In this document: one piece after another, positions 1 to 15,936 of the stretch
How positions within the stretch are numbered: position 1 is the stretch's first letter
How the letters are laid out: each line of letters begins with the position of its first letter
Virus record (IMG/VR): IMGVR_UViG_3300032030_000014
Span: 3,919 to 67,918 of that record
Source: a virus
DNA length: 64,000 bases
Direction: 5' to 3' (one strand)
Program-made: the position numbers and the translations under genes
The notes under the pieces: model-generated
Told to the model about the DNA's origin: nothing
What the model saw: the letters and a program-made list of their open reading frames with translations, nothing else
The model's database searches: none

Positions 1-1601
1 ATTCTAATCTTGTAGGAGGAGTAGACCCAATTGGACCAAGTGGTCCATTTCATCAACAAAAAACACGCAGAGGAGGCACTTATGGTTCTTCTGCCAATAG
101 CACAAGAACTTTAGTATCACGTCAAGTACGTAGTATTGATGGCGGAGTAGGAATGGGATTCCGTCTATGTCTCTCTGGTGATATGAATAGTGTTCCTCCT
201 GGAATGGTACGTCCAAAAGATGTTGTTCATCCTAATATTGATGAGCGTAATCTTCCTGTAACATATAGAGATAAGCGTTGGATTACTAACGATAATTATG
301 TTTGGTTAGGTTCGTTTGGTGGCTTTTTAAGTTTTGAAATGAAAATTTGGGAAACTGGTGAGATGGCAATTCGGTCTCCTGGATATACTGAGAAGGTTGG
401 TCAGTGGTATAGTGTAAGCAATCTTGGTCTTGTTTTTGTAGAAAATGCTTTTCAACAGAATGAAAAACGTATCATTATGCCATATATGTTTATTACAGAA
501 GAACTTGCTACTATTATCAATGATGTTTCTTTTTATGGAGACGGAGCACCGATGGGACGTTTTGAGAAAAAAGAAGTTGCTGATAGTAGTAAATTCAAGA
601 AACCAGAATATATTCTTTTATATCCACCAGAAGAGCTTGCAAAATCTTCAACTCATGATCATACTTCTTATGACCTAAGTAATATTACAGAAGAAATGAA
701 AGGTAAAGATAGACGACTTATTAACGAGGATGGATTTGGCTGGTGGTTGACAACGAGTATTGGTATTCATCAATACCGTGAAGATATTACCGAAGACGAT
801 TTGCGTTTTGTCGTTTATTCTCCGGCTTTCCCAAGTGAGTCTGGAGGAGCTGATCCTGGATATGGAGCAAATTATTTAGCTCAAGGAAAATGGTATACCA
901 TAAATGATATGCTTCTTGTGGTAGATACAGGAGATATTTTAATTCATTATTTATATACTGTAACTCCAGAAGTAAATTCATATGTAACTCAAGGTAAAAA
1001 AGCAAAACAAATGCTTCATATTTCCTATGCAGATTATGAAAAAGGCGATGCTCGTATCTTCGAATGTCATCCTAACAAAAATATTCGAGGTTATACACAT
1101 CAAATTCCAGAAGGAGAATTTAAACCTTTTGGTATTTCTACTTTCCGTAGAGAAATGCCACCTGAACCACTTTGTCCAGGTGGTTGTGGTTATCCAATTA
1201 ACCATTGTAGATGTAATACAATTTGTCCAGACTGCGGCGAGCATATAAATAATTGTTGTTGTCATAACGCAGAAGCAAGATTAGCTGAAGCTGTTGAAAA
1301 TGTAAAATCTTGTTTTGAAGGATACCAAGTCACAAATAATACATCGCAAGCTCACTTAGATGCTGCTGCAAGACTTGCGGTAGGTTTACATCAAATCAAG
1401 CGTTCTTGGGTTGGATTTAAAAAGACAAATGCCACTAAAGAAAAAGATGGTTCTATTGTTGGAACTATAGTTTTAACATTGGGAAATAATCAAGAAAAAA
1501 TTCCTATTAACTTAGTAATTCCTTGTTTAGCTCCAGTTAAAACAAAAGAAGAAGAAGCTATGGCTAAATTAATGGCAAGATTTGGATTTAAGGGGAAATA
1601 A
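1..1601 (+). CDS. 5'-partial large structural-type protein, Cys-rich near the C-terminus (CPGGCGYPINHCRCNTICPDCGEHINNCCCH); possible tail or fiber protein
   Basis: Reading frame is open from the window start in the frame of ORF 153..1601; ends with TAA. Function is a guess. Confidence 0.45.
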   Translation, partial: SNLVGGVDPIGPSGPFHQQKTRRGGTYGSSANSTRTLVSRQVRSIDGGVGMGFRLCLSGDMNSVPPGMVRPKDVVHPNIDERNLPVTYRDKRWITNDNYVWLGSFGGFLSFEMKIWETGEMAIRSPGYTEKVGQWYSVSNLGLVFVENAFQQNEKRIIMPYMFITEELATIINDVSFYGDGAPMGRFEKKEVADSSKFKKPEYILLYPPEELAKSSTHDHTSYDLSNITEEMKGKDRRLINEDGFGWWLTTSIGIHQYREDITEDDLRFVVYSPAFPSESGGADPGYGANYLAQGKWYTINDMLLVVDTGDILIHYLYTVTPEVNSYVTQGKKAKQMLHISYADYEKGDARIFECHPNKNIRGYTHQIPEGEFKPFGISTFRREMPPEPLCPGGCGYPINHCRCNTICPDCGEHINNCCCHNAEARLAEAVENVKSCFEGYQVTNNTSQAHLDAAARLAVGLHQIKRSWVGFKKTNATKEKDGSIVGTIVLTLGNNQEKIPINLVIPCLAPVKTKEEEAMAKLMARFGFKGK

Positions 1602-1604
1602 TAA

Positions 1605-1913
1605 ATGGCAAAAGGTAATATTGCAAAAGAGAATATTGTAAAAGTTTTAGAACAGGCTTTTGGCGAAGATTATATTGGAGAATTTGACAAAAAGTATTAT
1701 GTATGGGCTGATGATGGTGGAAATCGAATTCAGATTTCTATCGCCTTGACCTGTCCAAAAGTATATAGAGGAGTAGAGGAAACTGCTTCTACCGAAATGA
1801 ATTTTGATGATGATGCAGAATCCGCGGCAGGGGAGAGTAGTTTTACGCCTGCTGACATTTCTAAAGAAGAGCAAGATACATTGGCTCAACTTATGGAAAG
1901 ATTAGGATTATAA
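1605..1913 (+). CDS. hypothetical acidic protein (102 aa)
   Basis: ORF track; tightly coupled to the upstream gene (4-nt gap). Confidence 0.5.
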   Translation: MAKGNIAKENIVKVLEQAFGEDYIGEFDKKYYVWADDGGNRIQISIALTCPKVYRGVEETASTEMNFDDDAESAAGESSFTPADISKEEQDTLAQLMERLGL

Positions 1914-1930
1914 GGTCAAGAATTGATAAT

Positions 1931-1971
1931 AGCACTAACTTCTTTTTAAAAGATAAAAAAGAAGTTAGTGC
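1931..1971 (+). terminator. long perfect hairpin (agcactaacttctt ... aagaagttagtgct); candidate terminator or processing site
   Basis: 14-bp inverted repeat seen directly; no clear T-run, so terminator function is uncertain. Confidence 0.35.
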
Positions 1972-2000
1972 TTGACTTTTGCGAAAATTTTTAGTATTAT
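1972..2000 (+). promoter_or_regulatory. sigma70-type promoter: TTGACT, 17-nt spacer, TATTAT
   Basis: Near-consensus -35 and -10 with 17-nt spacing, about 40 nt upstream of the 2042 gene. Confidence 0.55.
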
Positions 2001-2041
2001 AAAAGAAAAAAATAAAATTTAGAGATAAAGGAGATTAAAAA

Positions 2042-2335
2042 ATGAGAAAGAATATTCCTATGCCTGAAGATTTTTGTAATTATGTTGAAGGATTAATGTA
2101 TGAGACAAATGCTCGTAAAGATGTAATTGCTTTTATGCTTAATTCTGCTATTTTAAATCAAGAAAGATTTGATCAATATCATAAAGAATATCTTGAATTT
2201 TATGCAAAGTATGAGTTAGTAAAGAATGAAATTCAAAAAACTTATGTAGATGAAGTTTATGGAAATCAGGCTATTAAATGGAATTTAAATTTCAAAACTC
2301 AAGAGTTAGAAATTGATTTAAAAGATGAAAAATAA
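2042..2335 (+). CDS. hypothetical protein (97 aa), first gene of rSAM cassette A
   Basis: ORF track; good RBS (aaaggagattaaaaaatg). Confidence 0.55.
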   Translation: MRKNIPMPEDFCNYVEGLMYETNARKDVIAFMLNSAILNQERFDQYHKEYLEFYAKYELVKNEIQKTYVDEVYGNQAIKWNLNFKTQELEIDLKDEK

Positions 2336-2357
2336 TTAATAGATAGGGGGTAACTTT

Positions 2358-3125
2358 ATGGCAGTTGCAACAGTAACAGCTGGTAGTCTATTAAGTGCCA
2401 CAACAATGACTAATTTAAAAGCTGCGGTTAAAGCAGAAATGTAGAGAAGATGTTATACAGGTTCTGTTGCTGCCTATGGTGGAACTTCATATGACTATAC
2501 TACAGCTGCAGGAACAGGAGTAAAAGCTGCTGTAGATTTTTATAATAAAAATGCTACTCCAGAAAATGCAGTTAATGCAGCAACGCCAACTAAAACAGCC
2601 GGAACAACAATTACAGCAGCTGATGTGAACACTTTAATCAATAATGTAAATACTTTTGCTGGCAGATCTTTAACAGCAACTACTTTAGCTGCTACAAGTT
2701 GTGCAGCATCATGCACTGGGCTATGTTTTAGTACTTGTGGAACTGCTTGTGCAACAAATTGTACTGGTGGATGTGGTAATAATTGTTAGGGTAGTTGTCT
2801 TGGAACTTGTTAGGGAACTTGTAATACAACTTGTCTTGCTTGTAGTAATGCTTGTGCATCAGGATGTAAAACAACTTGTACGGGTGGTTGTACTGGATGT
2901 AGTAATACATGTACTGGAGGTTGTAATACTACATGCACAACTGCTTGCGATACTGCGTGTGCAAAAGCCTGCACTGGAGGATGTGCCGGATGTACTGGAT
3001 ATTGCACGACAAGCTGTTAGGGATATTGTGAAGATAGTTGTTAGGGATGCTCAAATGCTTGTCAAGCAAGTTGTGGATCAGGTTGTACATCAAATTGTGT
3101 TCAAGCTTGTTCTACTGAAAATTAA
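2358..3125 (+). CDS. Cys-rich repetitive peptide or protein with 5 in-frame TAG codons; candidate substrate of the adjacent radical-SAM/SPASM enzyme
   Basis: ATG at 2358 with RBS (ggggtaactttatg). Frame contains only TAG codons as stops until TAA at 3123. C-terminal half is Thr/Gly/Ser-rich with repeated C-x3-C and C-x-G-G-C motifs; the TAG codons fall in C-TAG-G contexts. Confidence 0.6.
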
Positions 3126-3140
3126 TTAAGAGGGGCATAT

Positions 3141-4502
3141 ATGAAAACAAATATAAATGAAATAGAATCTTTTTCAAATTTTTTAACACGAGTTTTTATA
3201 CCAAAAAATTATTTTACAAAAAAAAATATGCTTGGTATAAACGGTGTTGCAGTAAAAGATATTACTATTTAGGTTACAGAAGATTGTAATTTACAATGTA
3301 CTTATTGCTATTAGCATAATAAAACTCCTCAAAAATTAAATATTGAAACTGGAAAAAAATTTATTGATTTAATTTTAGCTTCTGATAATCGAAGTGAAAA
3401 ATATATTTAGTCAAAAGAATGTCTTGGAGTTGTGCTTAATTTTATTGGAGGAGAACCTTTTTTAGAAATAGATACTATTGATATTCTTACTGATTATTTT
3501 ATTAATAAAATGATTGAATTAAATCATCCATGGCTATTTAGATATAGAATTAATATTACTTCTAATGGATTATTATATTTCTCTGAAAAAGTTCAAAAAT
3601 ATATTAATAAAAATGCCCAACATCTTTCAATAGGAATTTCTATTGATGGTAATAAAAAATTACATGATAGATGCAGAATAGATCATAATGGACAAGGATC
3701 TTATGATAGAGCAATAGCAGCCCAAACTCATTATTTTAAAAAATATAATCTTCATGGGTTAACTAAAATGACTCTTTCTCCAGATAATATAGATTGTTTT
3801 AAAGAGTCTTTAATAGAGTTTTTAGAGTAGCATAAAGAAACTTGTATTTATGCTAATTGTGTATACGAAAAAGGCTGGAATCTTAATCATGCTTAGATTT
3901 TATATCAAGAATTAAAAAGTATTGCAGATTATTTATTATAGCATGACTTACAAGATTCAACATTTATTAGTATTTTAGATTAGTTAATAGGAGTAAAATA
4001 TAGTTCAAATCATGCCTTTTGCGGAGGTTCTGGAGACATGGTAGCAGTTGATGTACATGGAGATATATACCCCTGTCTTAGATATACTCCAAGTTCTATT
4101 GGTAATCCTAATTTAAAATTTAAAATTGGCGATGTTGAACACGGATTTATTTATAATGAAGAGCAAGAGCAAAGATTAAAATGTTTAGCGTGTATTACTC
4201 GTTAGAGTCAAGATGCTACTACAGAAAATTGTACAAATTGTCCAATATCTTCAGGTTGTGGTGATTGTGCAGCATATAGTTATGAAGTTTTTGGTGAAGT
4301 TGGTCATAGAACAACTTTTATTTGTGAGATGCATAAAGCAAGAGTTTTAGCTGCCGTTTATTATAAAAATAAATGTTTTCAAAAAACCGGTATTAAAGAA
4401 CCTTTACCCATGAATTGTCCAAAAGAATGGGCAGTTCCAATTATTGGCGAAGAAGAATATAATATGCTTTGTGATTTAGCAAATAAATCATTTGAATCTT
4501 AA
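3141..4502 (+). CDS. radical SAM enzyme with SPASM domain (RiPP or peptide maturase-like), 8 in-frame TAG codons
   Basis: CNLQCTYCY (CxxxCxxC) near the N-terminus. C-terminal Cys clusters (CGGSGDM..YPC, CTNCPISSGCGDCAAY) are typical of SPASM. Frame is open except for TAGs. Confidence 0.65.
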
Positions 4503-4509
4503 AATTTTT

Positions 4510-4546
4510 GGGCGAGGTAGATAAATTTTGCCTCGCCCATTTTCTT
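4510..4546 (+). terminator. rho-independent terminator (gggcgagg...cctcgccc + T-run)
   Basis: GC-rich hairpin followed by attttctt. Confidence 0.7.
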
Positions 4547-4572
4547 ATTATAACACAAAGAAAGCTCTAAAA

Positions 4573-4601
4573 TTGATTTTTTAAAAAAAATATATTATAA
4601 T
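4573..4601 (+). promoter_or_regulatory. conserved phage promoter (TTGATT, 17 nt, TATAAT), family member
   Basis: ttgattttttaaaaaaaatatattataat; this sequence is repeated more than 25 times in the window. Confidence 0.7.
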
Positions 4602-4633
4602 ATATTTAGAAAATAAAAAAAGGAGAAAAAAAA

Positions 4634-4948
4634 ATGTTCGGTTATCATGATTCTAATCGCTGCAAGCTTGATATTTGGGCTCCAAAAGCATATCATTCTT
4701 GTGAAGATGCTGATGAAATCCAGTCTGGGTATGGCGTTTGGGAAGATACTCCCTATTCATGTGCTATTGACAATCGTGCGTTTTCTCCGTATGCAAAGCA
4801 TACTCAAGAGATTGATGATCTGGTCGAAATGATTGCGGCTGGTGGCACGTCTTTTGAACTGGACGATGATTTTTCCGAAGCTGACCTTGAAGAATTGCAA
4901 AGAAAACTTGCGGCAAGAGGTCTTTCAGCAGATTTATCCTTATCATAA
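4634..4948 (+). CDS. hypothetical protein (104 aa)
   Basis: ORF track; RBS aaaggag; preceded by the family promoter. Confidence 0.6.
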   Translation: MFGYHDSNRCKLDIWAPKAYHSCEDADEIQSGYGVWEDTPYSCAIDNRAFSPYAKHTQEIDDLVEMIAAGGTSFELDDDFSEADLEELQRKLAARGLSADLSLS

Positions 4949-5345: not shown

Positions 5346-5433
5346 CCCTTTCTAGTGTGTTAAAGTAGGCACGTCGGTCTGTAAAACCGAAGCCTTGTGG
5401 CCCGAGTGGGTGCGATTCCCTCGAAAGGGACCA
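5346..5433 (+). tRNA. tRNA-Tyr (anticodon GTA), class II with long variable arm, CCA encoded
   Basis: Acceptor ccctttc/gaaaggg is perfect. Anticodon arm tcggt-ctGTAaa-accga. Long variable arm. Confidence 0.55.
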
Positions 5434-5575
5434 AAGCGGAGTGAACTCCTTCGCTATATAAAATAATAAGGTGAGTAACGCAGGAGAGCCACGTTCCCTG
5501 CCGCCGAGTAATCGGAAAATAGTGCGAGGTTTCCAAGGGGTGGTATGACTTGGGAGTAGTAGAAACCACCAATAT

Positions 5576-5651
5576 GCCTCCTTAGCCCAGTTGGTAGAGC
5601 GACAGACTGTTAATCTGTGGGTCGGCGGTTCGAGCCCGTCAGGAGGCGCCA
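5576..5651 (+). tRNA. tRNA-Asn (GTT), CCA encoded
   Basis: Acceptor gcctcct/aggaggc; anticodon arm acaga-ctGTTaa-tctgt; T-loop ggttcgagcc. Confidence 0.7.
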
Positions 5652-5984
5652 TGTGAAGCAAATCAGCAATTAAGCAAATGTGCGGCTGGTCAACCAAAAG
5701 ACTGTGGATTGGGCGAAATGCCACGATAGTTTTATCAAAAATCGCATCCGTGCTGTGGCACCTGTAGATATTGAGCAAAGCAGGGTGTAGTGATTGCCCT
5801 ATTACACTTGGATTAGGGTCGGAGAGAACAACTTCGTTATAACAAGTAGCGATCGGACTTGTTTGTTCGCCTTCTGGCTATGATGGTGTGGAGCCTCGCC
5901 ACATAGCGTTACATCTTGGGGTTCTCAAAGTGCGAATGGAATATTAGGCATACATTGGGGTGATGATCCTAGTCCCCTCCGTTT

Positions 5985-6058
5985 AGGCGGCTGGTGTAAC
6001 GGTAGCATGTCGGTCTCCAAAACCGTTGGTCTGAGTTCGAATCTTAGGTCGCCTGCCA
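5985..6058 (+). tRNA. tRNA-Trp (CCA)
   Basis: Acceptor aggcggc/gtcgcct; anticodon loop ctCCAaa; T-arm gagttcgaatct; 3' CCA. Confidence 0.55.
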
Positions 6059-6148
6059 AGCCCCGTGAGCTATTATGAGCTACCGGGTAGGACTCACGAC
6101 ATAGGTGGAGTGGTTGCCCATCTTTACATAAATAGCAACCATTTATAT

Positions 6149-6235
6149 CGGCGTGTGGCGGAACAGGTAGACGCGTCAGTTTGAGGGACTGGTGGGCGAA
6201 AGCCCGTGCTGGTTCAAGTCCAGTCATGCCGACCA
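6149..6235 (+). tRNA. tRNA-Leu (GAG), class II
   Basis: D-arm gcggaacaggtagacgc; anticodon arm tcagt-ttGAGgg-actgg; long variable arm; T-arm gctggttcaagtccagt. Confidence 0.6.
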
Positions 6236-6404
6236 GGAGCCGTTACGAGCAAAACTTCATAGGATTATTAGATAAGTCGGACTGATCCTCCGAAACTATT
6301 TGATAAACACCATGACCGCCGATTGGGTCAGAGATTGCTTGGGTTGCAACTTGCTAAGTAATCGTAATCGGATGTGCGGTTGGGCGACCTTAAGTCCGTC
6401 ATAT

Positions 6405-6481
6405 ACCTCGGTAGTTCAGTCCGGCAGAACAGCGGACTCATATTCCGTAGGTCGTTGGTTCAAATCCAACCCGAGGTACCA
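6405..6481 (+). tRNA. tRNA-Met or Ile2 type (CAT)
   Basis: Acceptor acctcgg/ccgaggt; anticodon arm gcgga-ctCATat-tccgt; T-arm gttggttcaaatccaac. Confidence 0.6.
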
Positions 6482-6526
6482 ACCTGGCAAGGTGGCGTAG
6501 CGTGAGCTACAAGTGCCAATGGCTGA

Positions 6527-6600
6527 AGGTACTTAAAACCGGCAATGGCCAAGCCAAGGGTATCCGAAAACCAAGAGGTCATTTATCTATCCAAATAGCA
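6527..6600 (+). repeat. copy 1 of a repeated ~70-nt module (aaaaccggcaatggccaagcc ... aaaaccaagaggtcatttatctatccaaatagca)
   Basis: Direct repeat of copy 2 at 6801-6897, about 85% identical over the flanks. Confidence 0.6.
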
Positions 6601-6777
6601 GGTGGCGGAATAGGTAGACGTAGTGGAGCGTGAGTAAGTAATCAGCGCTACTGGTTAATTGAAATTTTAAAGGCTCTGATAGGCAACCTCGATAGAGTAG
6701 TGGAATGAGAGCAGCTAAGTCCTATTGAAACTTACTCATATAGGGTGCAAATCCTTATCTTGCTATATTATAACTAT
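6594..6777 (+). other. tRNA-like gene with a ~95-nt internal insertion
   Basis: Candidate acceptor tagcagg/cttgcta; D-arm gcggaataggtagacg; T-arm tagggtgcaaatcctta. Anticodon region is unresolved. Confidence 0.25.
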
Positions 6778-6800
6778 TTGTGCGAATGACTGAACGCACG

Positions 6801-6897
6801 TAAAACCGGCAATGGGCAAGCCAGCTCGTAGCTTTATTCATGAAATAATGCTCTTAGCTAAAACCAAGAGGTCCTTTATCTATCCGAATAGCATATT
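6801..6897 (+). repeat. copy 2 of the repeated module (aaaaccggcaatgggcaagcc ... aaaaccaagaggtcctttatctatccgaatagca)
   Basis: See copy 1. Confidence 0.6.
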
Positions 6898-6983
6898 AAG
6901 TAAATCGTAGGTTACTAGTCGTGAAACGTTTTAGTGCGAGTACAGATGACACGACCATCCAAGGCGTGAGGATAGACTTTTAT

Positions 6984-7059
6984 GGGCAGGTAGCTCAGCT
7001 GGTAGAGCGTTGGCCTGAAGAGCCAAGCGTCGGGGGTTCAATTCCCTCCCTGCCCACCA
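6984..7059 (+). tRNA. tRNA-Phe (GAA)
   Basis: gggcagg-ta-gctcagctggtagagc...ttggc-ctGAAga-gccaa...ggttcaattcc...cctgccc-a-cca. Confidence 0.8.
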
Positions 7060-7081
7060 TAAAAACACAAAGGAGATTACT

Positions 7082-7267
7082 ATGCATACCTTCCATTCTC
7101 AGGATAAATACAATTTCCATCATAACGGAGATTTTTCTGGTGATGTAATAATCACCAAGGATAATGACGCTGATTTTGAGGTTGAAATTAGCGGTCAGGC
7201 TCTTCTTGAGTATGCTCGTTATGTGATTGAATCCATTCTTACAGAAAAAATTGAAGATATTATGTAA
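7082..7267 (+). CDS. small hypothetical protein (61 aa) inside the tRNA array
   Basis: RBS aaaggagattactatg. Confidence 0.45.
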   Translation: MHTFHSQDKYNFHHNGDFSGDVIITKDNDADFEVEISGQALLEYARYVIESILTEKIEDIM

Positions 7268-7268
7268 T

Positions 7269-7345
7269 GGTGTAGGTAGCGCAATTGGCAGAGCATCGGA
7301 TTGTGATTCCGAGTGTTGTGGGTTCAAATCCCATCCTTCACCCCA
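7269..7345 (+). tRNA. tRNA-His (GTG) with extra 5' G(-1)
   Basis: Anticodon arm tcgga-ttGTGat-tccga; T-arm gtgggttcaaatcccat. Confidence 0.6.
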
Positions 7346-7348
7346 TAT

Positions 7349-7423
7349 GCCGAGGTCATACAGTGGTTAGTATGCGAAACTGATAATTTCGTCACGGTAG
7401 TTCAACTCTACCCCTTGGCACCA
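7349..7423 (+). tRNA. tRNA-Ile (GAT)
   Basis: Acceptor gccgagg/ccttggc; anticodon arm cgaaa-ctGATaa-tttcg; T-arm gtagttcaactctac; CCA encoded. Confidence 0.6.
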
Positions 7424-7788
7424 GCGGTATAATAACCGTGCATACATAGGGCTTAGAAAATACAGTAATAATGGCTAACGGCAGTTTGCTGATTTAGATC
7501 AGCCAAGTCAGACGGGTCGGGGTTAGCAAAGAAAGGCTAACAGGTAGTACTGCGATAGGTAAGAAATTCGCGTTCCGAAATAAGTCGGGAAAACCGAATG
7601 ATACGGATCAGATACTTTCCACATAAGTGGTCTAGGAAGAGATTTTAGGTAGCGGATAACGACCGCTAGATGCTTCCTTGTAAAGTCACCTTGAAACTAG
7701 GTCATAGCTACCACATTATTACGACTAAAAGAACAATCATCAAGGGAGGGTTCCTCGGTGAAAATCCGAGTCTTGGACTCCCATTTTT

Positions 7789-7946
7789 CCCCGTCTAGCT
7801 CAATTGGTTAGAGCACACGACTTGCTGGTATAGTGTAATGGTAGCACGCAGGATGCCCCTCGTAATCTGGGGAGGAGTAAGTTCGATTCTTACTATCGGC
7901 ACTAATAATCGTGAGGTTCTGTGTTCAATTCACAGGGCGGGGACCA
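7789..7946 (+). tRNA. Pro-like tRNA gene (C1-G72, A73, 5' loop starts ctTGG) interrupted by an ~81-nt insertion in the anticodon loop
   Basis: Acceptor ccccgtc/ggcgggg, D-arm gctcaattggttagagc, anticodon stem cacga/tcgtg and T-arm ctgtgttcaattcacag are all complementary across an 88-nt loop region (7821-7908). Confidence 0.4.
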
Positions 7947-8060
7947 GAGAAGACACACACAGCAATTTACTTTATAAAAGTATATTAGTCCACTGGTAGG
8001 ACGCAATTCTGCAAAAATTGAATAGTGGGTCCGATTCCCACATATATTTTTTAGGTGTCT
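7944..8060 (+). repeat. stem-loop family member (aagacac-ACACAGCAA ... gtgtctt); here the stem encloses tRNA-Cys
   Basis: 7-bp stem aagacac/gtgtctt with the conserved ACAGCAA 5' loop segment. Confidence 0.5.
7979..8049 (+). tRNA. tRNA-Cys (GCA)
   Basis: D-arm gtccactggtaggac; anticodon arm caatt-ctGCAaa-aattg; T-arm gtgggtccgattcccac. Confidence 0.5.
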
Positions 8061-8063
8061 TGA

Positions 8064-8240
8064 ATGAAAAAAGAATTTATTTTCTATTTACCAAAATTAA
8101 ATAAAAATCGTATTATTATAGCCCGTGATGAAGCAACTGCGGTTTGGAAATTGTTTAATCAGTTTCGCTTGCGAGAGAGTGACGTTGATGGGTATAGAAT
8201 AATGCGACAGGGAAAAATTCATAGGAAATTTTCCCTTTGA
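8064..8240 (+). CDS. small hypothetical protein (58 aa)
   Basis: ATG directly after the stem-loop; ends TGA. Below the ORF-track cutoff. Confidence 0.3.
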   Translation: MKKEFIFYLPKLNKNRIIIARDEATAVWKLFNQFRLRESDVDGYRIMRQGKIHRKFSL

Positions 8241-8243
8241 TAT

Positions 8244-8319
8244 GCGGGCTTAGCTCAGCTGGTAGAGCATCGCGTTTACACCGCGGAGGTCGGGGGTCCG
8301 AGTCCCTCAGCCCGTACCA
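8244..8319 (+). tRNA. tRNA-Val (TAC)
   Basis: gcgggct-ta-gctcagctggtagagc...tcgcg-ttTACac-cgcgg...gggggtccgagtccc...agcccgt-a-cca. Confidence 0.8.
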
Positions 8320-8787
8320 AAAAGCATTGGCGTGGAGAGAATAGGCAGAAATTTATATTCAAAACTAGTGGGGAATGTTATACCCAGCCGAGTCAATGCT
8401 TTTTTCCAGACCATATATGCTAGAGTCCTCGCAGGCAGAGGAATATAAAGGTTTCGGGGATGCTTGGTGGTCGAGCCCCAGAAAAAAGTACCACCCTGGC
8501 GGTCAGAGGGATAACCGGTGCATAACGGAAAGAGCCCCGCAAGTCTGACAAGTATATACAAGAAGACGCAATCAGCAACTCAATCTTTATAGAATGATTG
8601 AATGATGTTGGGATAGTTTTTTTATTCCACCGAAGACTGAAAAGTATCTTTTCAGGTTCATAGCCAAGAGAAGGTTTATAGGAGACTAATTTCGGTCTCT
8701 TGGTAACAAAGAAATAAGGTCTCTTGCGTCTTGACTTAGGAGAAAGTAATGGAAATTTACACTTCTTATTTTTATTAGGTTCGTTTT

Positions 8788-9213
8788 ATGAAACCATATA
8801 TGATTCCACTTTCAACTGCTGTGTGGGATCCAAAATGGTTTCATCAAAACAAAGGATAGGATTTTGTTTGGAAAGATAAAAATAATGTGTATAATGGATT
8901 GCGGGCATCGGTGTTTGCTCCTGGTCCTCTCTGTGAAAATCTTTGCAGAGGACCTGAAACTTGTGATACACATGACCCAACAAAATGCTTATTTTTGAAA
9001 ACTTATCGTTATCAACTTGACCAATTGGATTTCAATGATGTAATCGCCCGTTGTGAGCGAATGGGCAATTATATTAAATCACTGGAAAATTTTTCTGAAG
9101 AACCAGTGATAATCCTTCTCGTTCACGAAGCAAAAGATAATCCTTGCTCAGAACGTCGTGTTATCCAAGAGTGGTTTGCCGCACATGGAAAGGAAGTTAC
9201 GGAATGGAGATAA
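8788..9213 (+). CDS. hypothetical protein with one in-frame TAG (141 aa)
   Basis: ATG at 8788 is in frame with ORF 8887..9213; the only intervening stop is TAG (HQNKG-TAG-DFVWKDK). Confidence 0.5.
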
Positions 9214-9443
9214 AACTTAATTATACACAGGAGGAACTATCCACTCTCTTGGATGGACTAAATAATGCTTGTATGGCACTGGCTCATGTATATTCAGCGG
9301 CATATTTAGGTTGCGATATTCCTGGTAGTTTTATACCTATGTTTGAACATCGTAGTTTTGAAGAAATTGAAGAAGTAACCAAATTGCGTTATGGTGCGGT
9401 TAGACAGTTATATAATTTTCTTCTGTCCTACGAAGAAAAATAA
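9204..9443 (+). CDS. hypothetical protein (79 aa), start overlaps the upstream stop
   Basis: ATGGAGATAA overlap; in frame with ORF 9144..9443. Confidence 0.5.
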   Translation: MEIKLNYTQEELSTLLDGLNNACMALAHVYSAAYLGCDIPGSFIPMFEHRSFEEIEEVTKLRYGAVRQLYNFLLSYEEK

Positions 9444-9445
9444 TT

Positions 9446-9520
9446 GCGGGTGTCGTATAACGGCTATTATACCTGGCTTCCACCCAGGAGACGTGGGTTC
9501 GATTCCCATCACTCGCTCCA
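9446..9520 (+). tRNA. tRNA-Gly (TCC)
   Basis: Acceptor gcgggtg/cactcgc; anticodon arm cctgg-ctTCCac-ccagg; T-arm gtgggttcgattcccat; U73; CCA. Confidence 0.75.
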
Positions 9521-9600
9521 ATAGCCGCCAGAGCAATGCGGCATTACCTGCTAGCAAGGTCCTGTAAAAACATGCCCTGCTGGCGGCTTATACCTCTTAT

Positions 9601-9629
9601 TTGATTTTTATAAAAAAATATATTATAAT
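9601..9629 (+). promoter_or_regulatory. conserved phage promoter (family)
   Basis: ttgatttttataaaaaaatatattataat. Confidence 0.7.
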
Positions 9630-9661
9630 ATATTTAGAAAATCAGATAAGAGGTGTTTTCT

Positions 9662-9853
9662 ATGTATTTCTGTCCGTTGTGCTATAAAACTTTCGAGACA
9701 GAGGCGGAAGCTGGAAAGCATTCGCTAAAGTGCTGGAAAGAAAGAAACCCTTATCATCAATCCAAGCCTGCCCCGCACAGCGAGAATATTGAAGAAAGAG
9801 CAATCAATAGCGATATGCTTAATTTCTTTTCTTCTCTCCAAAAGAAGGATTGA
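9662..9853 (+). CDS. small zinc-finger-like protein (FCPLCYKTF...H..KC)
   Basis: RBS aagaggtg; ATG at 9662; C2H2-like motif. Confidence 0.5.
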   Translation: MYFCPLCYKTFETEAEAGKHSLKCWKERNPYHQSKPAPHSENIEERAINSDMLNFFSSLQKKD

Positions 9854-10206
9854 TGATGCAAGAGGTAATGATAAAAACCCACTTAATAGTCACAGATGTT
9901 CACGAAGAATATTTTGTAGATTGGTGTGGGAAAATTGCTAATACAAAACCCCTTTTCAAGAACAATATGCCGATATTTGTTATTATTGGATCTGAGGGGC
10001 GTGTTGAAATAAACACTATTGACATAAAGAGTATTGAAGAATCAGCAAAAAAATTAACTCATCCTCGTGGGCGGCAGGCAATAACGACTGACATAGCCCG
10101 CATTTATATCAAAGAAGAAAATGGAAATGAGAAGTTGATTGGAAGAGTTATTCACAATCACGTTAAAAAATATCAGCAAATGTATGACCCTTTCAACAAG
10201 ATTTGA
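9853..10206 (+). CDS. hypothetical protein (117 aa)
   Basis: ORF track 9850..10206; overlaps the upstream stop. Confidence 0.5.
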   Translation: MMQEVMIKTHLIVTDVHEEYFVDWCGKIANTKPLFKNNMPIFVIIGSEGRVEINTIDIKSIEESAKKLTHPRGRQAITTDIARIYIKEENGNEKLIGRVIHNHVKKYQQMYDPFNKI

Positions 10207-10215
10207 AAATCTCTA

Positions 10216-10244
10216 ATTGATTTTTTAAAAAAAATATATTATAA
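10216..10244 (+). promoter_or_regulatory. conserved phage promoter (family)
   Basis: ttgattttttaaaaaaaatatattataat. Confidence 0.7.
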
Positions 10245-10277
10245 TATATATGTAAGATAAAGAAAGGGGAATGAAAG

Positions 10278-10445
10278 ATGTTTGATGATTTTGACACCCA
10301 GGTTCAGATCGAAGAGATTATCCCCGAAGAGTATGAGGACTGGCTTGAATCCATCCGCAATGAAGAGCATGATGAATGGTTTCGGCAGTTCTGTGAGGAT
10401 ATGGCGCAAGAGCGTTATGAGGAGGGCATTTATGCTGAAGTATGA
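10278..10445 (+). CDS. small acidic protein (55 aa)
   Basis: RBS aagggga; ends TGA, overlapping the next start. Confidence 0.4.
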   Translation: MFDDFDTQVQIEEIIPEEYEDWLESIRNEEHDEWFRQFCEDMAQERYEEGIYAEV

Positions 10446-10698
10446 TATGGTTAAGGAATTCAGTGGTGACGAAGTGTTCGAAGCCTGCCGCAAGCGTTGC
10501 GGTCGTGATATTGAGGGAATCCTCAATGAAACTTACTGCCCGCCTCAGGATGGCGCAATCTGGGTGAGTCTTCCTCCGAAAGATGAGTATGATGACCCTG
10601 AATGTTACAGCCCCGAAGAGATTATTTTGTTCAAGACCCTTCATGAAGATGGCGGGCTTGAGTGGGGCGAGGGCTGTTACATCGCAGTAAGCTACTAA
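10432..10698 (+). CDS. hypothetical protein (88 aa)
   Basis: ATG at 10432 in the frame of ORF 10282..10698; the upstream part of that ORF lies in the promoter and previous gene. Confidence 0.5.
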   Translation: MLKYDMVKEFSGDEVFEACRKRCGRDIEGILNETYCPPQDGAIWVSLPPKDEYDDPECYSPEEIILFKTLHEDGGLEWGEGCYIAVSY

Positions 10699-10714
10699 AC
10701 AAAAAGAACTCCAC

Positions 10715-10743
10715 TTGATTTTTTTAAAAAAATATTATATAAT
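10715..10743 (+). promoter_or_regulatory. conserved phage promoter driving a non-coding region plus tRNAs
   Basis: ttgatttttttaaaaaaatattatataat; no ORF downstream, tRNA-Ala ~170 nt downstream. Confidence 0.6.
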
Positions 10744-10913
10744 ATATATGTAAGATAAAGAAAGGGAATGAAACCGAGATAGAAAGTTGGGCTCGGCATT
10801 GACCATCATCCCTTCATCCAAGGCTCGCGGGAGGAATAATAGACGGACTGAGCATCACTAATTGTGGTTGGAGCGTGAAGAGGACGCCGTTGGCCGCGTT
10901 AAGGCTGATATCT

Positions 10914-10989
10914 GGGGGTGTAGCTCAATCGGTAGAGCGACGGCTTTGCAAGCCGTAGGTAGCGGGATCGTAACCTGTCACCTCCACCA
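10914..10989 (+). tRNA. tRNA-Ala (TGC), non-canonical T-loop (atcgtaa)
   Basis: gggggtg-ta-gctcaatcggtagagc...acggc-ttTGCaa-gccgt...cacctcc-a-cca. Confidence 0.55.
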
Positions 10990-11573
10990 GGCTCGCCCCT
11001 GGCCGCAACGTAAAGGGGTAAAGCGCCACCAGAGATTGATAGTATCTATGGAACTGCAGGCGCGATATAAATAGGTAAATCCAATTACTATTTTGGTCTT
11101 GAAGTTTAGCTTGGGAACAAGCTAACAGGCCACGGCAGTTCGTTTTGAAGTCATCCTGTCGTTATGAAGCGGTGGCCACCGTGAGAATATGATGGAGGGT
11201 GCCGGTCTCGAGAAAAATCCGACCAAAAGGAAGCTGCGGCGTTACCGGTTGCCGCACAACCGCCAATGGATTAAGCGGTATATAAAATGGTTCAGCTCGT
11301 AGCGACCGTCTGGCGCGAGGATAAACAAAAGTTCTTGGCGGCCTATAGCAAGTTAATATAGTTAGTCAGACGTTTGTTGACTAATCTATCACCCTTGCCG
11401 AATAAAATCGGTGCAAATCCGTTGCGGACTACGAAATGCTCAGAGGAATGTCGTAGGAGTAAGGTTCCCAAGGCGGGACATGATTAAGGACTGACGTGTG
11501 GCCCTACGATAAGGTGGCATGAGTTTAGCCCAAGTTTCGAGTCTTTTATCTTTGAAAAAGACGATGAACATAT
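10990..11573 (+). ncRNA. ~580-nt GC-rich (~50% GC) structured non-coding island between tRNA-Ala and tRNA-Asp; function unknown
   Basis: No ORF; sharp GC contrast with the genome; many local hairpins. I looked for tmRNA and RNase P motifs and did not recognise any. Confidence 0.3.
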
Positions 11574-11650
11574 GGCTCCGAGGGAAAACAGGTTGATCCG
11601 CCAGCCTGTCACGCTGGAGATAGCGGGTTCGAGCCCCGCCGGAGTCGCCA
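11574..11650 (+). tRNA. tRNA-Asp (GTC), unusual D-arm
   Basis: Acceptor ggctccg/cggagtc; anticodon arm ccagc-ctGTCac-gctgg; T-arm gcgggttcgagccccgc; G73; CCA. Confidence 0.5.
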
Positions 11651-11723
11651 GAGAGGAAAGTTACATTCGTTCAGAGTGGGTAACAAAGTAGGATGTGAAA
11701 CTGGTTCGGCCTACGTTTTATCT

Positions 11724-11807
11724 GCCGATGTGGCGGAATGGCAGACGCGTCTGCCTTAGGAGCAGATGTCGAAAGGCGTGCAGGTTCAAGTCCTGTCATC
11801 GGTACCA
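11724..11807 (+). tRNA. tRNA-Leu (TAG anticodon, reads CUA/CUG), class II
   Basis: D-arm gcggaatggcagacgc; anticodon arm tctgc-ctTAGga-gcaga; long variable arm; T-arm gcaggttcaagtcctgt; A73; CCA. Confidence 0.65.
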
Positions 11808-11818
11808 ATTTTATATGC

Positions 11819-11977
11819 GGGTTTCGTATAAGAGGTAAGACAGCCCCGAGGAGAGGGGCAGATGTGGGTTCGATCCCCACAACCGGCAAACAGGTTTGAT
11901 GTAAGAGGAAAGCATAGTGGCGGGCATTTGGAAATCCCGCCGCAGGTATGGGTTCGAATCCCATAACCGACAGTTAA
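11819..11977 (+). other. two tandem degenerate tRNA-like elements (possible tRNA pseudogenes)
   Basis: Both have good T-arms (gtgggttcgatccccac; atgggttcgaatcccat) and similar D-like regions. Acceptor and anticodon arms are imperfect. Confidence 0.3.
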
Positions 11978-12282
11978 TAGTATTTGGGTCGTTGCCAACT
12001 TCTACCCGACAAACTACTATGATTATAAACAGATAGTAGAGATTATAACAAAGTGAAGTATGGGTTTAGAGTGATGCTGGTTTATGCGTTCTATGCCGAA
12101 ACGCAATCGGGAATGGCTGTTTGGTTGAAGGTGTAGCCTCGCTCCCGGAAAGGCGAGGGTGAGAAGAACCGCCCGAGGATTTTTGTATCAGTTTTTCCTG
12201 CGCTTGGATAGTGGAAAAACATACGGTTCAGTGATGCCGCTGTTCCAGAAAGATGGGTGCTGCAGACCCCATAAGTGCATAT

Positions 12283-12359
12283 CCTCCTCTACTCCAACTG
12301 GTAGAGAGAGACGGCTCAAACCCGTTATAGTCTCGGTTCGAATCCGAGGGGGAGGACCA
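12283..12359 (+). tRNA. class-I-type tRNA with anticodon CAA (Leu codon UUG) but no long variable arm
   Basis: Acceptor cctcctc/ggggagg; anticodon arm gacgg-ctCAAac-ccgtt; T-arm ctcggttcgaatccgag; A73; CCA. Confidence 0.45.
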
Positions 12360-12372
12360 AAAAATCATTTAG

Positions 12373-12401
12373 TTGATTTTTCAAAAAAAATTTGATATAA
12401 T
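12373..12401 (+). promoter_or_regulatory. conserved phage promoter (family) driving a non-coding RNA region plus tRNAs
   Basis: ttgatttttcaaaaaaaatttgatataat. Confidence 0.65.
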
Positions 12402-12408
12402 ATTTATA

Positions 12409-12759
12409 GAAAGATAAGGAAAGCACCATGAAAGGGTTGGCGGTTATCCCTAAAAACCGTTGGCAACAGTAATCGCACCTCCACGTGGTGTTGCTGGATG
12501 CGAGTGATTTCTCTAGCTCGTAACTAAATGCGATAGATAACATAAGCTTGGCTGACGTCCCAGCCCCTGAGCCATTGAGAAGAATGGAACAGGATACAAC
12601 AGTACCGATGTACGCGCGGAAATTTCGGCCATAGTCAGGGAGCCGTAGAAAAGCTCTATGTTATCAACCTCAGCCCTTGGCGTGGGAGGCGAAACGTTCC
12701 AGCAAAGCAGATGAACTGCTGGTGGTTGTAGGTGACTGTATGGAACCTTCGTAGAAACT
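12409..12759 (+). ncRNA. ~350-nt GC-rich candidate structured ncRNA transcribed from the 12373 promoter, upstream of tRNA-Glu
   Basis: No ORF; ~50% GC; directly downstream of a strong promoter. Identity unknown. Confidence 0.3.
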
Positions 12760-12836
12760 GGCCCTGTCGACAAGAGGCCTAAGTCACCGGCCTTTCAAGC
12801 CGGAGTCGGTGGGTTCGAATCCCCCCAGGGTCACCA
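12760..12836 (+). tRNA. tRNA-Glu (TTC)
   Basis: Acceptor ggccctg/cagggtc; anticodon arm ccggc-ctTTCaa-gccgg; T-loop ttcgaat; CCA. Confidence 0.6.
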
Positions 12837-13129
12837 AAGGCTTCTTATCAATTCAGCCCAATAATAAAGAAGAATTGATACTCGTAGGGATGGATTATTA
12901 CTAAACTACCACCGGCACTCAACCTCGGCGTCCTTTGAGATATGCGGGTCAGTGATATGTGGCTTGTCACTAACGAGTATAAATAAAAGCGAAAGCAAGT
13001 AGAAGCCCATAATGGGGTGGCTGTCCCAGGTCAGGGGGGCGTTTCAAATTATCAGTTGTTCCAAACAGCGCAGTAAATATGACCATTTGGACGAGGAGCG
13101 TGGCTAAGCTCGTTAAACCGCCACATATT

Positions 13130-13206
13130 GGCCCCTTCCTCTAATGGCTTAGGAGTCCGGCCTCTCACGCCGGCAATGTTGAGTTCGAGTCTCACAGGGG
13201 TCACCA
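13130..13206 (+). tRNA. tRNA-Glu (CTC)
   Basis: Acceptor ggcccct/aggggtc; anticodon arm ccggc-ctCTCac-gccgg; T-loop ttcgagt; CCA. Confidence 0.6.
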
Positions 13207-13321
13207 TAGGTAGAGAATCGAGAATCTACCTGCCCCAAGTGCATAGCACTGAGGCGATGCCGTTTGTATTTTTCATATTACTCAGTGCTGGGTATCACAT
13301 TAAACTGCCCACTCCTCATAT

Positions 13322-13400
13322 TGCGGGGTGTTAGCAGTCTGGTAGCTTGCCTGCCTCATAAGCAGGAGGTCGGTGGTTCAAATCCATCCCCCCGCAACCA
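13322..13400 (+). tRNA. second CAT-anticodon tRNA (Met, fMet or Ile2 type)
   Basis: Anticodon arm cctgc-ctCATaa-gcagg; T-arm ggtggttcaaatccatc; acceptor tgcgggg/ccccgca with one extra nucleotide; CCA. Confidence 0.5.
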
Positions 13401-13805
13401 GGTGTTCGCGCACTGTTTTCTCATTCCTCGTTTAAGCTCCCTTCGGAGGGATCCTACTTATCTTGTCTATGGTAACTACCTCCTATAAAAATAAGTCGTT
13501 AATTTTGGTATAGTTAAGTAGGCTGGGGAGTAACACCTCTTCACATACCTTCTTTTCGCAATAAAAACTCTTTTCTGACAGGAGTTTTTAATAAAACTTG
13601 TGTGTTCGTTTTCAGTCTCCTTTCTTTTGGTTTTTTGTTTTGAAAGTGTCCTCTTTCACCGTTGTTCTGTTTTCCACACAAGAATAAATTTTTACCTGTC
13701 AGTTCTTATAAAATTCTTTTTCTAAACCACCAATGATTGGTCTCAAGTCCAATAGGAAGAAGTGCGAGAGGAAAAAGAATTTTTTTTGAAAGGGAGGAAT
13801 TTCAA

Positions 13806-14093
13806 ATGAAGTTCTATTCTGAAAAGCTCAATAAGATGTTCGACACTTAGGAGCTATGTGCTCAAGCAGAGAGCGAGCACGAACAAGCAGTAGCGGAGGC
13901 TGAGGCTAAGAAGAAAGCCCTCGCAGAAGAAAGAGCAACCCGTGCCAAGGCTGTTGAAGATGCATACCGCAAGGCTGTTGAAGCCAAGCAAGAGTATGAT
14001 AAAATCCTTCAAGAGTTCCTTAAAGATTATGGTTCTTTCCACGCTACATTCAAAACCGGCGATCCCTTCTTTGGAATTTTTGACTGGTTTTAA
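13806..14093 (+). CDS. hypothetical protein with one in-frame TAG (95 aa)
   Basis: RBS gggaggaatttcaaatg; frame contains a single TAG (KMFDT-TAG-ELCAQ) and ends TAA. Confidence 0.5.
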
Positions 14094-14134
14094 TCTCTTC
14101 TAAACGCGGCCGGGGCGCAAGTCCCGACCCTTAT

Positions 14135-14229
14135 GTCGGGCTAAGCCTAATTGGTAAGGCATCCGCCTGCTAAGCGGAGAGTAGTCGTCGTAAGGCGGCG
14201 TTTCGGTTCAAGTCCGAAGCCCGACGCCA
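14135..14229 (+). tRNA. tRNA-Ser (GCT), class II
   Basis: Acceptor gtcgggc/gcccgac is perfect; anticodon arm tccgc-ctGCTaa-gcgga; long variable arm; G73; CCA. Confidence 0.75.
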
Positions 14230-14270
14230 GAGCTTTGGCTCTATTTTACGCGTAAAAGGAGAGATTCCCA

Positions 14271-14810
14271 ATGAATGATGTTCGTCTCAAGATTTCACCC
14301 CCATGGATTACTTATATCAATAAGCTGTAGGCTCTATTTGATGGCGATCCGCAGATCGCTTGTAATGTAAATCAGAGTGCGGCAGGACCTTCTATTGTTC
14401 TTGCTTGCAACAATGGTGATAAGGTTGCTGCTCTACAGAGACTTCTTCCAACAGAAAAGAAGTTTGGCAATGTAACCCTCACTATTGGAGTTGATGGAGT
14501 TCCAAGCAATATTGCTTTTCCAACTCCAAAGGCTTTGTTTGATGCCGCTTTTAGTGGTAATCCAGCTTATGCTTATTCCCTATCTCCTTCCGACGAAGGT
14601 TATTGGTTCTTTAGCATGACTTATGTTGTATTCAAGAATTGTGTTGTTCAGTTTTTCAATGATAATCTAAATGATTGTCATGGTTTAATTAGCACACTTT
14701 ATCAGGATATTGCAGCAGAAATCTTTGAAGATGCTGGTTTGAGTGGTGTTTATTATAACACCGATGTTGAAACTGGCAAGCTCGGCAAGCCACTTGGTGA
14801 GTGGCCTTAA
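14271..14810 (+). CDS. hypothetical protein with one in-frame TAG (179 aa)
   Basis: RBS aaaaggagag; ATG at 14271 is in frame with ORF 14535..14810 across one TAG (YINKL-TAG-ALFDG). Confidence 0.55.
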
Positions 14811-14825
14811 TGCGTAAATAATTTA

Positions 14826-14892
14826 AAGGCTCATACAGCAATTTTTTATATATAATTTACTTAAAATAAATTTACATATAAAAAAGAGCCTT
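14826..14892 (+). repeat. stem-loop family member (aaggctc-ATACAGCAA ... gagcctt) preceding tRNA-Ser
   Basis: 7-bp stem with the conserved loop 5' segment; AT-rich ~50-nt loop. Confidence 0.55.
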
Positions 14893-14900
14893 GTTTTTAT

Positions 14901-14994: not shown

Positions 14995-14999
14995 AATAT

Positions 15000-15450: not shown

Positions 15451-15462
15451 TAAGGAGTAATT

Positions 15463-15933: not shown

Positions 15934-15936
15934 TAT

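Follow-up and report, generated by a model that had tools for sequence, protein, structure and literature searches.

What would a peptide-modifying radical enzyme do in the genome of a large recoded phage, next to a protein in which cysteine recurs at every fourth residue? The locus that raises this question, here called cassette A, consists of three closely spaced + strand genes (g1, g2 and g3) in a 64,000-nt stretch of the IMG/VR virus record IMGVR_UViG_3300032030_000014 (the window, meaning the whole stretch analyzed), and encodes a candidate helper, a Cys-rich predicted target and a maturase of the radical S-adenosylmethionine (radical-SAM)/SPASM type. Drawing on sequence comparison and on analogy with characterized enzymes, we interpret cassette A as a phage-type, three-gene branch of the CXXX-repeat modification system that may serve as a late module cross-linking a fiber-like virion protein, a reading whose chances we judge to be about even. 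A cross-linked virion fiber appears to be a more likely product than a secreted, antibiotic-like peptide. An earlier reading made from the letters alone (the sequence-only reading) had placed an operon for proteins of 97, 255 and 453 amino acids (aa) here, and all three genes lie where it put them:

2042..2335, + strand: g1, 97-aa helper, zero in-frame TAG
2358..3125, + strand: g2, 255-aa target protein, in-frame TAG at 2442, 2787, 2811, 3018 and 3042
2700..3110, + strand: Cys tract of g2 (residues 115-255), with Cys at every fourth residue
3141..4502, + strand: g3, 453-aa radical-SAM/SPASM maturase (TIGR04115), 8 in-frame TAG

Each of the three genes has a purine-rich ribosome-binding sequence on its 5' side.

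A maturase of the CXXX-repeat family

Evaluating g3 against NCBIfam, we found that it passes TIGR04115 ("radical SAM peptide maturase, CXXX-repeat target family") with 352.4 bits (cut-off 350, E 3.5e-105) and covers profile positions 2-359 of 359, and that its phage and prophage orthologues score 463-468 bits on the same profile. The second-best family, that of PapB (NF047865), gave 157.6 bits (cut-off 340), with the SCIFF maturase family TIGR03974 at 120.1 bits (cut-off 425) and the QhpD family at 105 bits (cut-off 453), all of them below cut-off and all among the four best non-self families of g3; the anaerobic sulfatase maturase family was also detectable (75 bits). The ranthipeptide and SCIFF classes suggested by the sequence-only reading do not survive these maturase cut-offs, the family that g3 passes being a separate one.

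The SAM-cluster motif of g3 reads C49-x3-C53-x2-C56 and is followed toward the C-terminus by a seven-Cys SPASM pattern (C294-x12-G307-x4-C312; C364-x2-C367-x5-C373-x2-C376; C395), with the Cys of both invariant in our alignment A4. Together with the TIGR04115 match, this bears out the earlier description of a radical-SAM enzyme with a CxxxCxxC motif and C-terminal SPASM Cys clusters. Pfam Radical_SAM was reached (30.8 bits vs a threshold of 29.5), and the SPASM domain, on whose profile detection the sequence-only reading had staked its case, was sub-threshold with Pfam SPASM alone (18.8 vs 21.5 bits) but is supported by TIGR04115 and by the seven invariant Cys. Among solved structures the closest to g3 is CteB (5WGG, E 3e-30), with residues 37-409 of g3 aligned to 95-449 of CteB; because the alignment starts at CteB residue 95, the first ~94 residues of that enzyme have no equivalent in g3. 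These profile and motif matches place g3 in the peptide-maturase clade, as a radical-SAM/SPASM enzyme of the TIGR04115 family.

A predicted target with cysteine at every fourth residue

The g2 protein contains 37 Cys, 36 of them in its tract, where 31 of the 35 Cys-Cys spacings equal 4 and the other 4 equal 3, a regularity that 0 of 10,000 shuffles reached. This is the spacing of the adjacent Cys-Xaa-Xaa-Xaa repeat target of the CXXX system, and g2 is the predicted target of g3. The tract measures 141 residues (115-255) rather than the 150 first reported, and of the dense C-x3-C and C-x-G-G-C repeats described there the former stand, whereas C-x-G-G-C occurs just 4 times. Cys makes up 26% of the tract, followed by Thr (18%), Gly (16%), Ala (11%) and Ser (9%), with Asp and Glu at ~1% each.

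Conserved across the homologues of g2 (n = 89, 160-295 aa, nearly all metagenomic) are an N-terminal domain of ~105 aa (N-domain) and a junction that hardly varies, (D/G)C-x-(A/S)-SCTG(L/T)C, ahead of the repeats; in g2 the junction reads SCAASCTGLC, with C115, C119, G121 and C123 conserved. The family PF27846 (tSAM_targ_Cxxx_rpt) is found in 55 of the 89, and g2 itself matches phrog_6085 at 4e-9 and falls below cut-off on TIGR04117 (18.7 vs 50) and TIGR04114 (11.8 vs 20). Pfam gave no match to g1 or g2, using a Pfam set without PF27846 in which known carriers were blank too.

The structure of g2 was read from its closest homologue (P0001, 49% identical) in an AlphaFold (AF2) model, in which the N-domain is helical, with a predicted local distance difference test score (pLDDT) of 85-94, and the Cys tract alone is unstructured (pLDDT <50). 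For the N-domain, Foldseek against BFVD returned only uncharacterized homologues of uncultured viruses, and a profile search of PDB sequences found nothing meaningful.

A candidate substrate-recognition adaptor

The AF2 model of g1 (pLDDT 94) predicts strand, helix, helix, strand, strand, with two long helices, only generic structural neighbors and a fold unrelated to the N-terminal domain of CteB. The helper family spans 498 clusters at E<=1e-3, and the g1 protein also occurs on metagenomic contigs up to 158 kb. With no NCBIfam match to g1 at E<=1, its connection to TIGR04116 ('CXXX repeat peptide modification system protein', CXXX_rpt_assoc) is transitive: g1 is linked to the helper of a Desnuesiella massiliensis prophage (L007) by BLAST at 2e-3 and also via a shared profile, that helper matches TIGR04116 at E 0.005, and our phage-helper profile matches Bacteroidales TIGR04116 proteins at ~1e-7 to 1e-2, one of which (L146) scores 102 bits on TIGR04116. 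Through this transitive link only, g1 would be a remote relative of TIGR04116.

In three loci (L010, 549 aa in the standard code with no TAG; L011; L031) helper and enzyme form one in-frame fusion, with the helper at the N-terminus. Mainly because these fusions place it where CteB carries its extra N-terminal residues, we propose that g1 presents the substrate to g3 and regard it as a candidate substrate-recognition adaptor. Helper fusions to proteins of 277-396 aa (P0142, P0228, P0246) were not used, being likely gene-call artefacts (two are out-of-frame Cys-tract translations and one is probably a recoded-stop read-through). Proteins of about 205-218 aa with two helper domains in tandem also occur.

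Recoded TAG codons in g2 and g3

Translated with the standard code, g2 and g3 fall into fragments, and only with TAG as a sense codon do they run full-length, in agreement with the recoding proposed by the sequence-only reading; the in-frame TAG total is 13 (5 in g2, 8 in g3). The read-through appears genuine because the TIGR04115 match to g3 (residues 39-408) spans all 8 TAGs, because 7 of the 8 g3 TAG positions are sense codons in the orthologous cassette of relative L012, and because the window encodes two tRNA(CUA) with Gln-like acceptor stems:

24736..24810, + strand: tRNA(CUA) no. 1 (ARAGORN), suppressor, needed in trans for translation of g2 and g3; acceptor stem like that of the window's tRNA-Gln(CTG)
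25009..25083, + strand: tRNA(CUA) no. 2 (ARAGORN), suppressor; acceptor stem like that of the window's tRNA-Gln(TTG)

Both g3 TAGs inside conserved motifs (ITIQVTEDC, CYQHNK) align to Q in L012 and in other family members as well. TAG in g2 and g3 is most likely read as Gln, and by these alignments and tRNA genes the phage is TAG-to-Gln recoded (genetic code 15).

Four of the five g2 TAGs stand in TGT-TAG-GGN, the arrangement that had earlier been taken for specific placement in C-TAG-G. The count holds, but the context is an ordinary one, since it amounts to Gln at the first variable position of the repeat followed by the commonest residue at the second, Gly (45% family-wide). With 17.6-19.5 TAG per 1000 codons, g2 and g3 rank among the most TAG-dense genes of the window, against 0 for the genes that flank them. 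Recoded stops have been proposed to be enriched in late and lytic genes, and the high density in g2 and g3 is consistent with such late-gene marking (bioRxiv 10.1101/2021.08.26.457843).

Across the whole window, ARAGORN called 35 tRNA genes, all on the + strand (5346..26540) and, apart from the two tRNA(CUA), covering all 20 amino acids; at 7824..7902 the called anticodon is anomalous, with just two bases. Gene by gene, TAG density falls as GC content rises (Spearman -0.49, p 1.5e-4), and several genes with GC near 0.5 and zero TAG (28044..29585, 30824..33271, 38323..39669, 43141..44619) stand amid genes with GC of 0.25-0.35, and may be early genes or may have been acquired recently. The highest TAG density in the window (6 TAG in 108 codons) belongs to a 107-aa open reading frame (ORF) at 49453..49776, which resembles the ORF at 60269..60589, both having YTKYTKEEI/DEI ... 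EKTFL.

The module in other phages

Scanning IMG/VR with the enzyme alignment, we found enzyme relatives on at least 251 contigs, and we analyzed the 80 best viral loci (here numbered L) with our own helper and N-domain profiles. Of these 80 loci, 75 have the helper, in most cases directly upstream of the enzyme's gene or joined to that gene, 78 have a protein with the N-domain or a Cys tract, and 73 have helper and target together. With g3 matching phrog_1802 at 2e-53, both g2 and g3 already sit in PHROG families, so the sequence-only view that such a system had rarely, if ever, been described in a phage does not hold up. Of its RiPP-like reading as a whole (RiPP, a ribosomally made peptide with post-translational modifications), a radical-SAM/SPASM enzyme from the peptide-maturase clade with a predicted target remains, but a first phage RiPP does not, the module being widespread and already cataloged. 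Our literature searches found no paper on the CXXX-repeat system or TIGR04115, two reviews of RiPP enzymes mention neither phages nor the CXXX-repeat family, and the target N-domain has no copy in any cultured phage record.

Elsewhere the module keeps company with tail genes. In five of the six phage and prophage loci annotated with Pfam it is embedded in a run of tail genes or follows it closely, and precedes the lysis genes; baseplate J, Mu gp48, tail-collar fiber, tape measure, XkdX, holin and endolysin are among the markers. Prophages in cultured hosts that carry the module are those of Desnuesiella massiliensis (L007; LN879456, about 153-174 kb) and Neglectibacter timonensis SN17 (L098). 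Among 119 neighbors at 22 further viral loci, the named families in the top-25 PHROG list are all tail fiber, tail, baseplate, virion structural or head decoration.

The target proteins themselves vary along their length. Across 74 distinct tract proteins, a median of 106.5 aa precedes the tract, which itself holds 17-88 Cys, and 24 of the 74 continue for at least 100 aa after it. In one group (L066/L071) the tract is followed by two ALK_LTK_GRD (ALK/LTK-type glycine-rich) domains (Pfam 7e-99), its gene standing between that of a paralogous three-GRD protein and the endolysin gene, and another group (L034) has a C-terminal domain of ~190 aa. Taken together, an N-domain that looks like an attachment domain, a repeat free to vary in length and, in some proteins, a globular domain at the distal end suggest the layout of a fiber.

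Other features of these loci were seen beside the core module. Some cassettes (L040, L047, L058, L060, L033) have two Cys-tract proteins, for example a 176-aa N-domain protein with one of 256-265 aa whose tract begins at residue 25. In a phage of 31-68 kb (L004-L006, 11223..19445) a gene for a 2224-aa protein and one for a reverse transcriptase (RVT_1, weak match) come after the CXXX cassette; here a diversity-generating retroelement may be at work on the adjacent fiber gene. A gene of ~180-200 aa after the target in many loci was considered as a fourth component and rejected, its copies being mutually dissimilar, lacking a family match and absent from the window.

How the cassette may work, and what else it might be

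In the mechanism we propose, g1 would take the role of the N-terminal recognition domain that is fused to related maturases, docking g2 onto g3 through the N-domain or through the conserved junction (D/G)C-x-(A/S)-S-C-T-G-(L/T)-C, and g3 would bridge sulfur to carbon at many places in the Cys tract, each bridge being a thioether cross-link. We infer multiple cross-links because g3 is related to PapB, CteB and QhpD, and its acceptors would have to differ from those of PapB and QhpD because the tract is almost without Asp and Glu. Cross-linking would turn the unstructured tract into a rigid rod resistant to proteases and to redox change, and the mature g2 would stay in the cell and be incorporated in the virion or attached to it as a short fiber or fiber shaft, with the N-domain as its attachment end. 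The high TAG load would confine synthesis of g2 and g3 to the late phase, when suppressor tRNA is active. That the destination may be a virion fiber is suggested by the tail-fiber and baseplate blocks in which the module lies in most other phages, by the variable tract length and by the C-terminal globular domains.

A number of observations weigh against this fiber reading. The margin of g3 on TIGR04115 is small, only 2 bits over the cut-off, and the variable positions of the g2 tract are mostly Thr, Ser, Gly and Ala, with Asp/Glu acceptors of the PapB and QhpD type lacking. The g2 protein itself has no C-terminal domain beyond its tract, and Foldseek of the N-domain fold against PDB found nothing, with no solved tail protein matched. 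The cassette stands here in a tRNA-rich region of replication genes, far from recognizable tail genes, and the recoded relative L011 has two such cassettes near RNase H, gyrase and ligase genes, not tail genes. The region between tail-fiber and lysis genes is moreover a classic site of cargo genes unrelated to the virion. Finally, we infer both the cross-link chemistry and the virion location, the thioether product by analogy with the nearest characterized enzyme families.

Cassette A might instead be a classical RiPP or bacteriocin system, in which the N-domain would be a long leader and the Cys core would be cleaved and released at lysis as an antimicrobial or signaling peptide to the benefit of phage or lysogen; we consider this unlikely. 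The enzyme does come from a RiPP-maturase clade, clostridial TIGR04115 members act on 76-86-aa peptides beside ABC-transporter-like genes, and the gap between tail-fiber and lysis genes commonly receives cargo. However, the cassette in the window has no protease, transporter, signal peptide or other export signal, and Pfam annotation of six phage loci showed no protease or exporter. The N-domain is conserved and, in the model, confidently folded (pLDDT 85-94), unlike a leader peptide, and the tract reaches 88 Cys and is fused in other loci to C-terminal domains of 110-600 aa, so that the small precursor peptide envisaged by the sequence-only reading gives way to a large, partly folded target. 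The second bacterial maturase, TIGR04119, is also lost in the phage branch.

We likewise give little credence to a tract that binds metal or iron-sulfur clusters, or is stabilized by disulfides, with g3 carrying out another reaction (formylglycine formation, epimerization or methylation), although g2 could then still have a structural role. In its favor are the detectable anaerobic sulfatase maturase family (75 bits), the missing Asp/Glu acceptors of PapB and QhpD, the inability of AF2 to fold the tract alone, which fits ligand dependence, and the Bacteroidales homologues, whose twin-arginine-type motif and tatA/tatC-like neighbors are typical of cofactor-loaded proteins. The best-scoring characterized relatives of g3, however, all form Cys thioethers; Cys at every fourth position over up to 400 residues looks like a substrate repeat and not a discrete metal site; and strict co-inheritance with a dedicated enzyme and adaptor argues for covalent, stoichiometric modification. 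The sequence-only reading had allowed that the Cys-rich protein might be a structural protein unrelated to the enzyme: it does look structural, yet it is tightly linked to the enzyme.

Very improbable is a non-virion, intracellular accessory role in a jumbo-type phage (host takeover, anti-defense, redox or metal buffering) with the tail location reflecting late co-expression only: the window and L011 cassettes do lie amid tRNA, nuclease, gyrase and ligase genes, and another radical-SAM/Cys-rich cassette, of a different kind, is found 15 kb from cassette A, but no known defense or anti-defense domain was found in the libraries searched (PADLOC not among them), and the fiber-like domain fusions and tail neighborhoods of most loci would be hard to explain.

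Significance of the proposed cross-linked fiber

Returning to the fiber reading, we put forward, tentatively, the more specific possibility that many uncultured phages of anaerobes build a fiber shaft with Cys at every fourth residue, stapled into a thioether ladder by a dedicated radical-SAM enzyme and its adaptor. Work on radical-SAM peptide maturases has so far centered on small secreted natural products, and the module suggests wide use of the same chemistry on large phage proteins, whose single chains hold as many as ~88 Cys. If the reading is right, a RiPP-type machine would mature a structural virus protein, giving a new fiber architecture in which enzyme-installed covalent bonds reinforce a tail component, with a bearing on the survival of gut phages among proteases and under reducing conditions; it would also provide a repeat substrate engineerable in length and a new adaptor in place of the usual recognition domain. 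The phage module is widespread and cataloged yet unstudied, and fiber stapling would be new biology if confirmed. Standard gene callers miss such cassettes in TAG-recoded phages.

Flanking signals and neighboring genes

Candidates for the promoter (1972) and terminator (4510) that the sequence-only reading had assigned to the operon were both found, as consensus matches only, along with an upstream hairpin:

1931..1972, + strand: terminator-like hairpin, 17-bp stem, which would close the preceding transcription unit; consensus match only
1972..2000, + strand: sigma-70-like promoter candidate, TTGACT-17-TATTAT, 10/12 matches; consensus match only
4509..4549, + strand: intrinsic-terminator-like hairpin (4509..4539) with a 13-bp stem including 7 GC pairs, then TTTTCTTATT as T-run; consensus match only

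Because the region holds 24 promoter-type sites where 17.4 are expected, the promoter candidate is weak evidence on its own.

The first gene of the window (1..1601) is truncated by the window start; in the near-identical contigs L094 and L095 it encodes a 731-aa protein with an N-terminal FGE-sulfatase domain (PF03781, E 2e-26) and a Cys/His cluster, CPGGCGYPINHCRCNTICPDCGEHINNCCCHN. We considered this protein as a tail-fiber or Cys-modifying partner of the cassette and rejected the idea, treating the protein as a neighbor only, its position not being kept in relative L012. Around the cassette proper the gene order is the same in L012. Compared with window 1605..4948, the L012 cassette proteins are 63-73% identical and the flanking 102-aa and 104-aa proteins 84% and 98%, and the Cys tract differs in length (proteins of 213 vs 255 aa); by these identities the cassette would be either faster-evolving than its surroundings or exchanged. 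Nucleotide comparison of the window with GenBank phages returned nothing beyond tRNA fragments, and a 44-mer taken from g1 had no exact match in IMG/VR.

The second, different cassette mentioned above (window 18882..23159) holds a PapB-like radical-SAM/SPASM gene and a gene for a Cys-rich protein. Its enzyme (TTG start at 18882, 410 aa, 8 TAG) scores 178 bits on NF047865 (cut-off 340) and 94 bits on TIGR04115, and its 231-aa protein (20124..20819, 5 TAG) carries CxxC/CxxxC tracts at either end and does not match the N-domain. Last in this cassette is a gene whose 773-aa product combines a signal peptide with an S-layer-homology domain (Pfam SLH 6e-22), a hint of a Gram-positive-type host.

Comparison with known systems

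The PapB/freyrasin system (a ranthipeptide system of Paenibacillus polymyxa) resembles cassette A in having Cys every few residues and a single radical-SAM/SPASM enzyme, and PapB is known to act repeatedly on C-x3-D motifs, forming thioether rings (PMC9413430). It differs in that the cassette A substrate, 255 aa long, has C-x3-C and hardly any Asp or Glu, in the separate helper and in the phage context; with g3 below the PapB maturase cut-off and Asp and Glu at ~1% each in the tract, cassette A is not of the PapB type. CteB of the SCIFF class (5WGG) resembles g3 in its SAM-cluster motif and in the layout of its seven SPASM Cys. Its ~94 extra N-terminal residues are its peptide-recognition domain, whereas g3 begins at the catalytic core and has g1 instead; SCIFF precursors, moreover, are ~45 aa with six Cys, far from the 255 aa and 37 Cys of g2, which is not a SCIFF precursor.

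The best functional analogy for the proposed role of g3 is QhpD, a radical-SAM/SPASM enzyme of the quinohemoprotein amine dehydrogenase system that cross-links Cys within QhpC, a protein kept as a structural subunit (PMC10114670). QhpC carries three Cys-to-Asp/Glu links and is a small enzyme subunit, whereas g2 has dozens of Cys in a repeat and no dehydrogenase genes are found here. On the virion side, some tail-fiber shafts are built from repeats, such as collagen-like G-X-Y tracts, and the tip of T4 gp37 is metal-ligated. The g2 family resembles such repeat-built shafts in its N-terminal attachment domain, variable repeat, optional C-terminal globular domain and place in a tail-fiber gene block, and is unlike them in a C-x-x-x repeat coupled to a dedicated radical-SAM enzyme; we know of no fiber shaft matured by an enzyme of that kind.

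With the bacterial CXXX system, cassette A has in common the TIGR04115 enzyme, the target with Cys at every fourth residue and an adjacent helper of ~90-100 aa that may be remotely homologous. That system, defined in silico only, its families reportedly set out in a 2011 TIGRFAMs paper, comprises TIGR04115, a second maturase (TIGR04119), the helper TIGR04116, the targets TIGR04114 and TIGR04117, and PF27846, and in our genome scan its canonical form occurred in Bacteroidales and some clostridia. The phage enzyme and helper are divergent from it: the Bacteroidales and Clostridium enzymes score 573-641 bits on TIGR04115 vs 352 for g3, and bacterial TIGR04116 helpers score 80-102 bits. TIGR04119 (CXXX_matur) is present in the bacterial loci, separate or fused to the enzyme (Prevotella 232 bits, Clostridium 304 bits), and absent here, BLASTP of the bacterial proteins against all TAG-sense ORFs of the window and the 80 viral loci giving only weak SPASM-region matches.

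The targets differ as well. Bacterial targets are short (76-237 aa, the clostridial ones being the 76-86-aa peptides noted above), whereas phage targets have the conserved N-terminal domain and often C-terminal domains. Bacteroidales targets begin with a twin-arginine-type motif, SRRDFFKK, and phage targets have no export signal; in Prevotella and Bacteroides genomes (L146, L129, L163; ~7200..11500) the canonical system lies directly upstream of tatA/tatC-like genes, which together with the motif suggests that the modified Cys-repeat protein is exported folded. Of the 80 best genome loci, in turn, no more than 8 had the N-domain type, each assigned to Bacillota or to unclassified metagenome-assembled genomes; a Desnuesiella prophage is one further case. 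Judged by these profile matches, cassette A belongs to a phage-specific variant of a family already curated in databases.

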